Shown here: one piece after another, positions 3,171 to 3,397 of the stretch | Position numbering within the stretch: the stretch's first letter is position 1 | Layout: each line of letters begins with the position of its first letter | Virus record (IMG/VR): IMGVR_UViG_2534681736_000023 | From: a virus | Lineage: Duplodnaviria; Heunggongvirae; Uroviricota; Caudoviricetes | Strand: one strand, 5' to 3' | DNA: 10,082 nt | Notes under the pieces: generated by a model | The model's database searches: none | The model's input: the letters and a program-made list of their open reading frames with translations, nothing else | Told to the model about the DNA's origin: nothing | Position numbers and translations under genes: made by a program

Positions 3171-3239
3171 ATGGCGCTTTACACAATTGGTGAAGTGGCG
3201 TTGCTTTGTGATATTAACCCTGTCACGTTACGCGCGTGA
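3171..3239 (+). pseudogene. mlrA: 5' remnant of the MerR-family regulator gene mlrA/yehV (22 codons then TGA); gene interrupted by prophage integration
   Basis: The ATG at 3171 is preceded by a GGGTGAG Shine-Dalgarno sequence. Translation gives MALYTIGEVALLCDINPVTLRA, then TGA at 3237-3239. This is the first half of a MerR-type HTH (xTIGEVA...TLR), which in intact MlrA continues W-Q-R-R-Y-G-L-L. Sequence downstream of ~3238 is AT-rich and unrelated to the gene. Confidence 0.8.
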
Positions 3240-3397
3240 CGCAACATTTTTAAAAATCGACGAAGATCGTCCAGGAGCGCCGTTTTTCAAGGGTTGGATA
3301 GATGATTCGTTTACCATGTCGACGAACTTCGACGAATTTCGCCGATAAAAAGTGTCCCATACATGCCCCATTGATGCCCCATAAACAATATCAGGAA

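Follow-up and report, generated by a model that had tools for sequence, protein, structure and literature searches.

mlrA (yehV) interrupted by the very probable attL of a lambdoid prophage: an O157:H7-type chromosomal flank joined to a yecE-type phage arm

Introduction

The DNA stretch of 10,082 nucleotides deposited as IMG/VR virus record IMGVR_UViG_2534681736_000023 (Caudoviricetes), called here the window in its full length, raises the question of why the reading frame of the regulatory gene mlrA (yehV) ends in it after only 22 codons, and what this would mean for the cell. An earlier note, made from the letters of the sequence, ascribed the break to a prophage integrated inside mlrA. The junction is very probably the attL of a lambdoid prophage inserted by a tyrosine integrase at the canonical mlrA site, in a cell that would lack functional MlrA and be expected to produce little curli. 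As such it belongs to a class described in great detail, whose site, phenomenon, and phenotype are already known; only modestly new is the mosaic of an O157-type host flank and a yecE-type late arm, while the anatomy proposed below for the att site, deduced from sequence patterns, appears to be new as far as found.

The mlrA–phage junction

The start codon of mlrA occupies positions 3171-3173, and translation of 3171-3260 gives 22 sense codons encoding MALYTIGEVALLCDINPVTLRA, i.e., MlrA residues 1-22 (3171-3236), followed by TGA at 3237-3239. Alignment to the uninterrupted mlrA of K-12 shows identity over 3100-3238 except for one synonymous T>C change at 3218, and unrelated sequence after 3238: identity is lost from 3239, where K-12 goes on with TGG CAG AGG CGT TAC GGA TTG CTG (WQRRYGLL). 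Since identity to K-12 ceases at 3238, the stop codon consists of the TG of mlrA codon 23 and an A of foreign DNA. The earlier note had the frame ending at this very TGA, at the point where intact MlrA continues WQRRYGLL, and was exact to the base.

Every one of the 5,426 complete E. coli genomes matches the window as far as 3238, but only 475 of them continue across the junction, which makes the break a sharp and recurrent junction and not a product of chance. The intact K-12 site, used as a query, is covered in 4,944 of these genomes; the two groups add up to 5,419 of the 5,426, which fits mutually exclusive states. L015 belongs to the same lineage and serves as an empty-site control: over the flank it is 100% identical to the window, and it encodes a full-length MlrA of 243 amino acids; because it also carries C at the position corresponding to 3218, this base is a host allele. 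The genes upstream of mlrA, yehS, btsR, and btsS, all on the minus strand, form the native mlrA/yehV neighbourhood. Window positions 1-3238 are identical to O157:H7 Z1486 (3,238/3,238 bp), and so is the chromosomal flank in the VT1-Sakai record AP000400 over its 1,539/1,539 bp.

In intact MlrA the Pfam domains MerR (residues 5-42) and MerR_1 (residues 4-72) are followed by the MlrA helical and C-terminal domains, and among homologues in the PDB the CarH/LitR-type DNA-binding domain aligns to MlrA residues 3-126. Of a complete MerR helix-turn-helix (HTH; residues ~4-72) joined to the C-terminal domains only residues 1-22 are left here, in keeping with the earlier statement that the HTH is cut after codon 22.

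Organization of the window

The features of the window are as follows.

31-501, minus strand: yehS (DUF1456), chromosomal flank; from the list of open reading frames (ORFs), with coordinates mapped from the 100% identical O157:H7 Z1486 annotation
548-1267, minus strand: btsR (yehT), response regulator; ORF list, native neighbourhood, Z1486 annotation
1264-2949, minus strand: btsS (yehU), sensor kinase; its product of 561 residues belongs to a very widespread allele, matched exactly
2950-3170, plus strand: btsS–mlrA intergenic region, intact native DNA upstream of mlrA (promoter); identical to O157:H7, and to K-12 over 3100-3170
3171-3239, plus strand: mlrA 5' remnant, codons 1-22 and TGA; from translation and K-12 alignment, a partial coding sequence in the PGAP annotation of RM10410 and Z1486
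3219-3238, plus strand: att core CCTGTCACGTTACGCGCGTG, the identity block common to attL, attR, and attB; 21 bp (3218-3238) in the present host lineage
3222-3240, plus strand: predicted core-type Int half-sites GTCACG (3222-3227) and CGTGAC (3235-3240) around TTACGCG (3228-3234), by analogy with lambda Int
3239-3463, plus strand: phage P' arm of attL; three mismatches to VT1-Sakai, none to yecE-type prophages
3352-3382, plus strand: three direct RTGYCCCAT repeats with 11-bp spacing, candidate arm-type Int sites
3398-3427 and 3433-3448, plus strand: dinI promoter-like site and LexA box CTGTATATAACCACAG, respectively; the VT1-Sakai record annotates a homologous promoter and SOS box
3464-3712, plus strand: dinI-like gene (Pfam DinI, E=1.6e-17); the exact protein is found at prophage ends in mlrA and yecE
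3717-3818 (approximate), plus strand: ykgJ-like remnant; the PGAP pseudogene of RM7190 and RM10410 mapped onto the window
4087-6153, minus strand: tail fibre of 688 amino acids with phage_tail_N, Collagen, and Phage_fiber_2 domains (Pfam); found unchanged at yecE or PPompW in many assemblies
6305-6928 (ORF to 6967), minus strand: lom, Ail/Lom outer-membrane protein (Pfam, E=3.4e-51); 207 amino acids in relatives
6997-10082 (ORF to 10071), minus strand: tip attachment protein J with Ig_GpJ_C, Ig_J, Phage-tail_3, and Phage_Tail_Tip domains, cut by the window end; 1,231 amino acids in relatives

The DNA after 3238 is of phage and not of native origin, because it encodes DinI-like and tail proteins and recurs in other strains beside yecD/yecE and inside another prophage, PPompW. 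The earlier note described it as AT-rich and leading into dinI-like and tail genes. The second part agrees with the Pfam assignments (DinI, tail fibre, Ail/Lom, J); the first is true only moderately and only of 3239-4086 (G+C content 0.436), while the tail genes, with 0.576, lie above the chromosomal flank (0.499).

The tail fibre gene contains at 4373-4804 four tandem 108-bp units (95% matches) encoding collagen-like Gly-X-Y repeats. The fibres of relatives have 652 or 688 amino acids, a difference of exactly one 108-bp unit, so the copy number of the repeat is variable. The LexA box CTGTATATAACCACAG differs at two positions from the box of O157 Sp15, CTGTACATAACTACAG, and equals that of yecE-type phages.

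The attachment site

The att core at 3219-3238 was placed by alignment of attL, attB, and attR. The same 20 bp are annotated as the attachment site (misc_recomb) in the VT1-Sakai record AP000400, and the 21 bp at 3218-3238 as a direct repeat (repeat_region) made by insertion in the YYZ-2008 record FJ184280. As judged from the sequence, the junction is base for base the attL of these two Stx1 phages of O157:H7. The agreement of the core with the depositors' annotations also bears out the description of mlrA/yehV in the earlier note as an integration site of lambdoid, including Stx1, phages. Scans with Rfam and for tRNA genes gave no matches in the window, so the site is not associated with a tRNA or a small RNA.

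Integration at this canonical site by a tyrosine integrase very probably proceeded by recombination of attP with attB inside the common core of 20-21 bp (3218/3219-3238). The core includes the inverted repeats GTCACG (3222-3227) and CGTGAC (3235-3240) around the 7-bp TTACGCG (3228-3234); the former would serve as core-type half-sites, and the latter is the predicted overlap, the place of strand exchange, falling in mlrA codons 20-22. The motif RTGYCCCAT has five matches in the window versus 0.66 expected, three of them at 3352-3382 with 11-bp spacing. The P arm of strain RM10410, described below, has two more copies, equally spaced at 11 bp, inside the int 3' end (L004 4173-4192). The two repeats of the P arm and the three of the P' arm are candidate arm-type integrase sites, resembling those of lambda, whose attP and attL architecture has inverted core-type sites around a 7-bp overlap and the arm-type repeats P1-P2 and P'1-P'3. 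The present sequences are, however, unrelated to those of lambda, which makes this a comparison of the manner of working only. Patterns of the lambda att type (inverted half-sites and arm repeats) exceed chance here and give predicted sites.

Three copies of TCGACGAANNTCG are present in the P' arm (3257-3269, 3319-3331, and 3329-3341), in the interval from the core to the candidate arm-type sites; they may be recognised by an accessory protein. At 3221-3250 the palindrome of the core, together with the adjoining CAACATTTTTAAAAA, scores as a terminator-like hairpin just 3' of the mlrA stub. Phage phi330 (PV189401) was not used as evidence of an independent attP: in this record, given as a complete genome, the 20-bp core occurs twice in tandem (~1975-2020) between int and dinI, as expected of an in silico joining of prophage ends and not of a sequenced attP.

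Relation to known mlrA-site prophages

The closest known counterparts of the junction are VT1-Sakai (Sp15), CP-933V, and YYZ-2008, Stx1 prophages of O157:H7 residing in yehV (mlrA), with an identical flank and the same core of 20-21 bp. VT1-Sakai also has the same layout of the dinI promoter and SOS box, and its P' arm differs at three positions over 3239-3483. The flank, the core, and the P' arm of the VT1-Sakai/Sp15-type attL are all present in the window. The Sp15 type of O157 is unlike the present phage in its dinI coding region (~92% identical), beyond which the sequences diverge; next to its own type of fibre it has a Phage_fiber_C protein and then, in part of the O157 genomes, NleG genes, whereas the window encodes the 688-residue collagen-repeat fibre.

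RM10410 (O113:H4), which carries an Stx2d prophage at btsS–mlrA (PMC10562709), has the same attL and the same DinI protein. Its junction opens a 53.7-kb lambdoid prophage, whose far end comprises xis, the gene of a 428-residue tyrosine integrase (98% identity with the Int of VT1-Sakai), the same core, and the remainder of mlrA, thus providing a complete model of such an element; stx2d lies ~30 kb from the junction. A second junction with xis, the yehV-type int, the core, and the mlrA 3' part is found in RM10410 and in the VT1-Sakai record, and in the present genome the far end is expected to carry xis, an int of the VT1-Sakai type, and TCCCTGTCACGTTACGCGCGTG, with mlrA resuming at codon 23 (GCAGAGGCG...). 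The host flank of RM10410 is 98.98% identical to that of the window, and its phage has a 575-residue fibre, DUF4376, and hok instead of the 688-residue fibre and lom.

Among the GTDB representatives the exact junction pattern was found only in ECMA0423 (CP178302), a divergent strain whose aligned stretches have 94-95% identity with the window. Besides the same mlrA–phage junction, this genome has ~1.4 kb of extra DNA between btsS and mlrA (L014 1434-2856) with ORFs of up to 336 codons, flanked by a duplicated stretch of roughly 15 bp, probably an insertion sequence.

Origin of the phage arm and alternative explanations

The phage arm is related mainly to prophages residing elsewhere. Window positions 3234-10082 are 99.3% identical, without gaps, to prophages at yecE and in PPompW, which encode exactly the same tail fibre and DinI; the description of a prophage in a yecE-like attB inside PPompW has been published (PMC8112680). 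These prophages differ from the present one in the left flank (yecD/yecE or PPompW), in the core, TTAACTGCGTG, and in the integrase, 83% identical to the yehV type with residues 1-99, the arm-binding region, identical. The identity block TTAACTGCGTG deduced for yecE is consistent with CAYGCAGTTAA, the block reported in PMC5592225. Between the two cores 14 of 20 bases are the same, both half-sites are common, and the differences lie mainly in the 7-bp spacer (GTCACG-TTACGCG-CGTGAC versus GTCACA-TTAACTG-CGTGAC; L025 405-425, L026 2107-3393). The P' arms do not differ, and by these sequences the yehV-type and yecE-type look like sister site-specific systems.

Several observations weigh against reading the junction as the attL of a lambdoid prophage at the canonical mlrA site. 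The window covers only the first ~6.8 kb of the phage (dinI, tail fibre, lom, and J), and int, xis, attR, and any stx, like the completeness of the prophage, would be a matter of the DNA beyond its end. From VT1-Sakai and Z1486 (Sp15 type) the arm differs by 29 mismatches in 3323-3609, followed by divergence, and the O157 flank in combination with the present arm occurs in none of the 5,426 complete genomes of E. coli. No IHF consensus (WATCAANNNNTTR) is present in the window, the arm included, and the overlap and arm-type sites are predictions by analogy. In a search of the same genomes with the whole window no place covers at least 80% of it, the flank with dinI giving a best match of 99.1%; nor is the combination of flank and arm among the contexts returned for proteins identical to the tail fibre, BtsS, or DinI.

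Four other explanations were weighed. That the sequence from 3239 on is native, and the short ORF a natural mlrA variant, has a negligible probability: nothing was found in its favour, mlrA continues in the 4,944 genomes in which it is uninterrupted, L015 among them, and the DNA after 3238, with its tail genes, recurs at yecD/yecE and in PPompW. The possibility of native sequence, which the earlier note had itself raised, is therefore rejected. A real junction followed, beyond ~3322, by DNA mis-joined in assembly from a yecE-type prophage of the same genome would account for the absence of the combination from the complete genomes and for the contrast between a flank 100% identical to O157:H7 and an arm which over 3234-3720 has no mismatch to yecE-located prophages but 29 to the Sp15 type; moreover, prophages at mlrA, yecE, and PPompW do not differ in the att-proximal arm, so a short-read assembler could cross over in it. 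The stretch common to the mlrA, yecE, and Sp15-type prophages is, however, only ~84 bp (3239-3322), to which ~115 bp bounded by single mismatches can be added, a length below that usual for assembly k-mers or reads. Lambdoid phages are notoriously mosaic, and RM10410 and other finished non-O157 assemblies have the present DinI allele at mlrA. A mis-join is thus improbable, and the simplest reading is that the phage itself is a mosaic, a case of ordinary lambdoid mosaicism helped by the common hinge. A chromosomal inversion between prophages in mlrA and yecE was considered and rejected. Both mlrA and yecD/yecE are located on one strand of the chromosome. The arm has the same direction relative to the host gene at both loci compared, and recombination between directly oriented copies would lead to loss or duplication of the DNA in between and not to an inversion.

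It is still less probable, indeed very unlikely, that mlrA served as a secondary site for an integrase of the yecE type, although attL by itself does not tell which integrase acted. The two half-sites and 14 bases common to the cores, the identical arm-binding regions of the integrases, and the 99.3% identity of the arm to the yecE and PPompW prophages would all suit it, and a yecE-type integrase has been reported at a second site, yciD/ompW (PMC5592225, PMC8112680). That second site, however, carries the same TTAACTGCRTG block and not a diverged one, while the predicted overlaps of the yecE-type and mlrA cores differ at three of seven positions. A mismatch in the overlap strongly disfavours strand exchange of the lambda type. 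Swapping of the int module is the simpler explanation. Whether or not the arm was mis-joined or a yecE-type integrase acted, mlrA is interrupted at 3238/3239.

The last alternative, doubtful but carrying more weight than the preceding ones, concerns the fate of the prophage: only a defective remnant may be present, leaving mlrA permanently inactive, with neither an excision switch nor stx. Truncated and non-Stx prophages are known in yehV of O157, such as the non-Stx prophage of TW14313, in which a 20-kb deletion was made (PMC8309913), with truncations attributed to Shaikh and Tarr (2003) as cited in PMC5931665, and the window itself contains the remnant of a ykgJ pseudogene. The latter is nevertheless common to all relatives, every visible phage gene is an intact ORF, and the DinI and tail fibre proteins are identical in many genomes. 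The attL of a lambdoid prophage at the canonical mlrA site remains the preferred reading.

Loss of MlrA and the curli phenotype

MlrA enhances RpoS-dependent expression of csgD (PMC5931665 and papers cited there). The promoter-proximal part of mlrA is reduced to the 22-codon stub, retaining the native promoter and ending with the TGA made by the junction. By the proposed mechanism, the distal part would be promoterless, and its MerR-type DNA-binding domain would be without helix one and without half of the recognition helix. MlrA, as an activator of csgD, would then be non-functional, and little curli or biofilm would be formed unless the phage excised precisely.

The possibility that the phage rebuilds mlrA was rejected on the example of RM10410. 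The 228-residue "MlrA" annotated at its attR starts with ATC, and an in-frame stop lies 33 bp upstream, with no ATG, GTG, or TTG between the two (L004 4243-4929). As no canonical start follows the stop, the PGAP call is homology-driven and no sign of a restored gene.

A prophage in mlrA is found in >95% of clinical O157:H7 isolates, in which the DNA-binding motif is disrupted, curli is lost or lowered, and biofilm and Congo-red binding are lowered (PMC5931665). Occupancy of yehV was found in 96.5% of 346 O157 strains, at times by non-Stx phages, so prophages without Stx exist at this site (PMC8309913). Distal mlrA fragments may be transcribed by run-off, without restoration of biofilm (PMC5931665 and papers cited there). 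Excision, studied in O157:H7 strain PA20, regenerates native mlrA, but cured O157:H7 cells are rarely recovered, excision being transient or detrimental (PMC5931665); restoration of curli and biofilm by excision from mlrA is credited to Uhlich et al. (2016), as cited in PMC5931665. In non-O157 Shiga toxin-producing E. coli, mlrA supplied in trans rescued curli and Congo-red binding in two of four strains with a prophage in mlrA (PMC3874044), so the genetic background matters. RM10410 forms little biofilm, and no curli were detected (PMC10562709).

The inference of the earlier note, that the strain is an mlrA-null lysogen with impaired curli expression, is therefore well supported by the literature, in which reversal by excision is also published; for this strain it is a prediction and not a demonstration. 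The curli phenotype also depends on the strain background, e.g., rpoS. The same note rightly held that the stx status cannot be read from the window: in Stx-converting phages stxA and stxB are placed between Q and the lysis genes, and relatives at the site carry Stx1a, Stx2d, or no stx (PMC8309913 among the sources). The situation resembles active lysogeny switches, such as the comK prophage of Listeria, in that reversible excision restores a host regulator gene. Nothing here, however, points to programmed non-lytic excision, and only the O157:H7 literature bears on it.

Significance

Of the published primers, yehV-outF matches the window perfectly at 2916-2938, as does the TW14313 junction primer at 3255-3274. 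The reverse primer for the O157 left junction, yehV-inR, located in dinI, has no match in the window within three mismatches; without a match to the present dinI allele, the standard left-junction polymerase chain reaction could miss an occupied site. Automated annotation may in turn label the promoterless distal fragment "MlrA" and thereby mask the disruption in gene-presence screens.

The locus mlrA/yehV is standard in Stx-phage insertion-site typing, and phages resident at yecE or in PPompW are often Stx2 converters. It is conceivable, and suggested here only tentatively, that the common arm acts as a recombination hinge at which a swap of the int–core module retargets a phage between yecE and mlrA, the "Stx1 site" of the O157:H7 lineage. 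If this is true, typing by insertion site would no longer tell the toxin type.

A prophage in mlrA is a recognised cause of the poor curli-dependent biofilms of most clinical O157:H7 isolates. The genome from which the window derives is accordingly predicted to be curli-low, and its lambdoid prophage is flagged for a check for stx.
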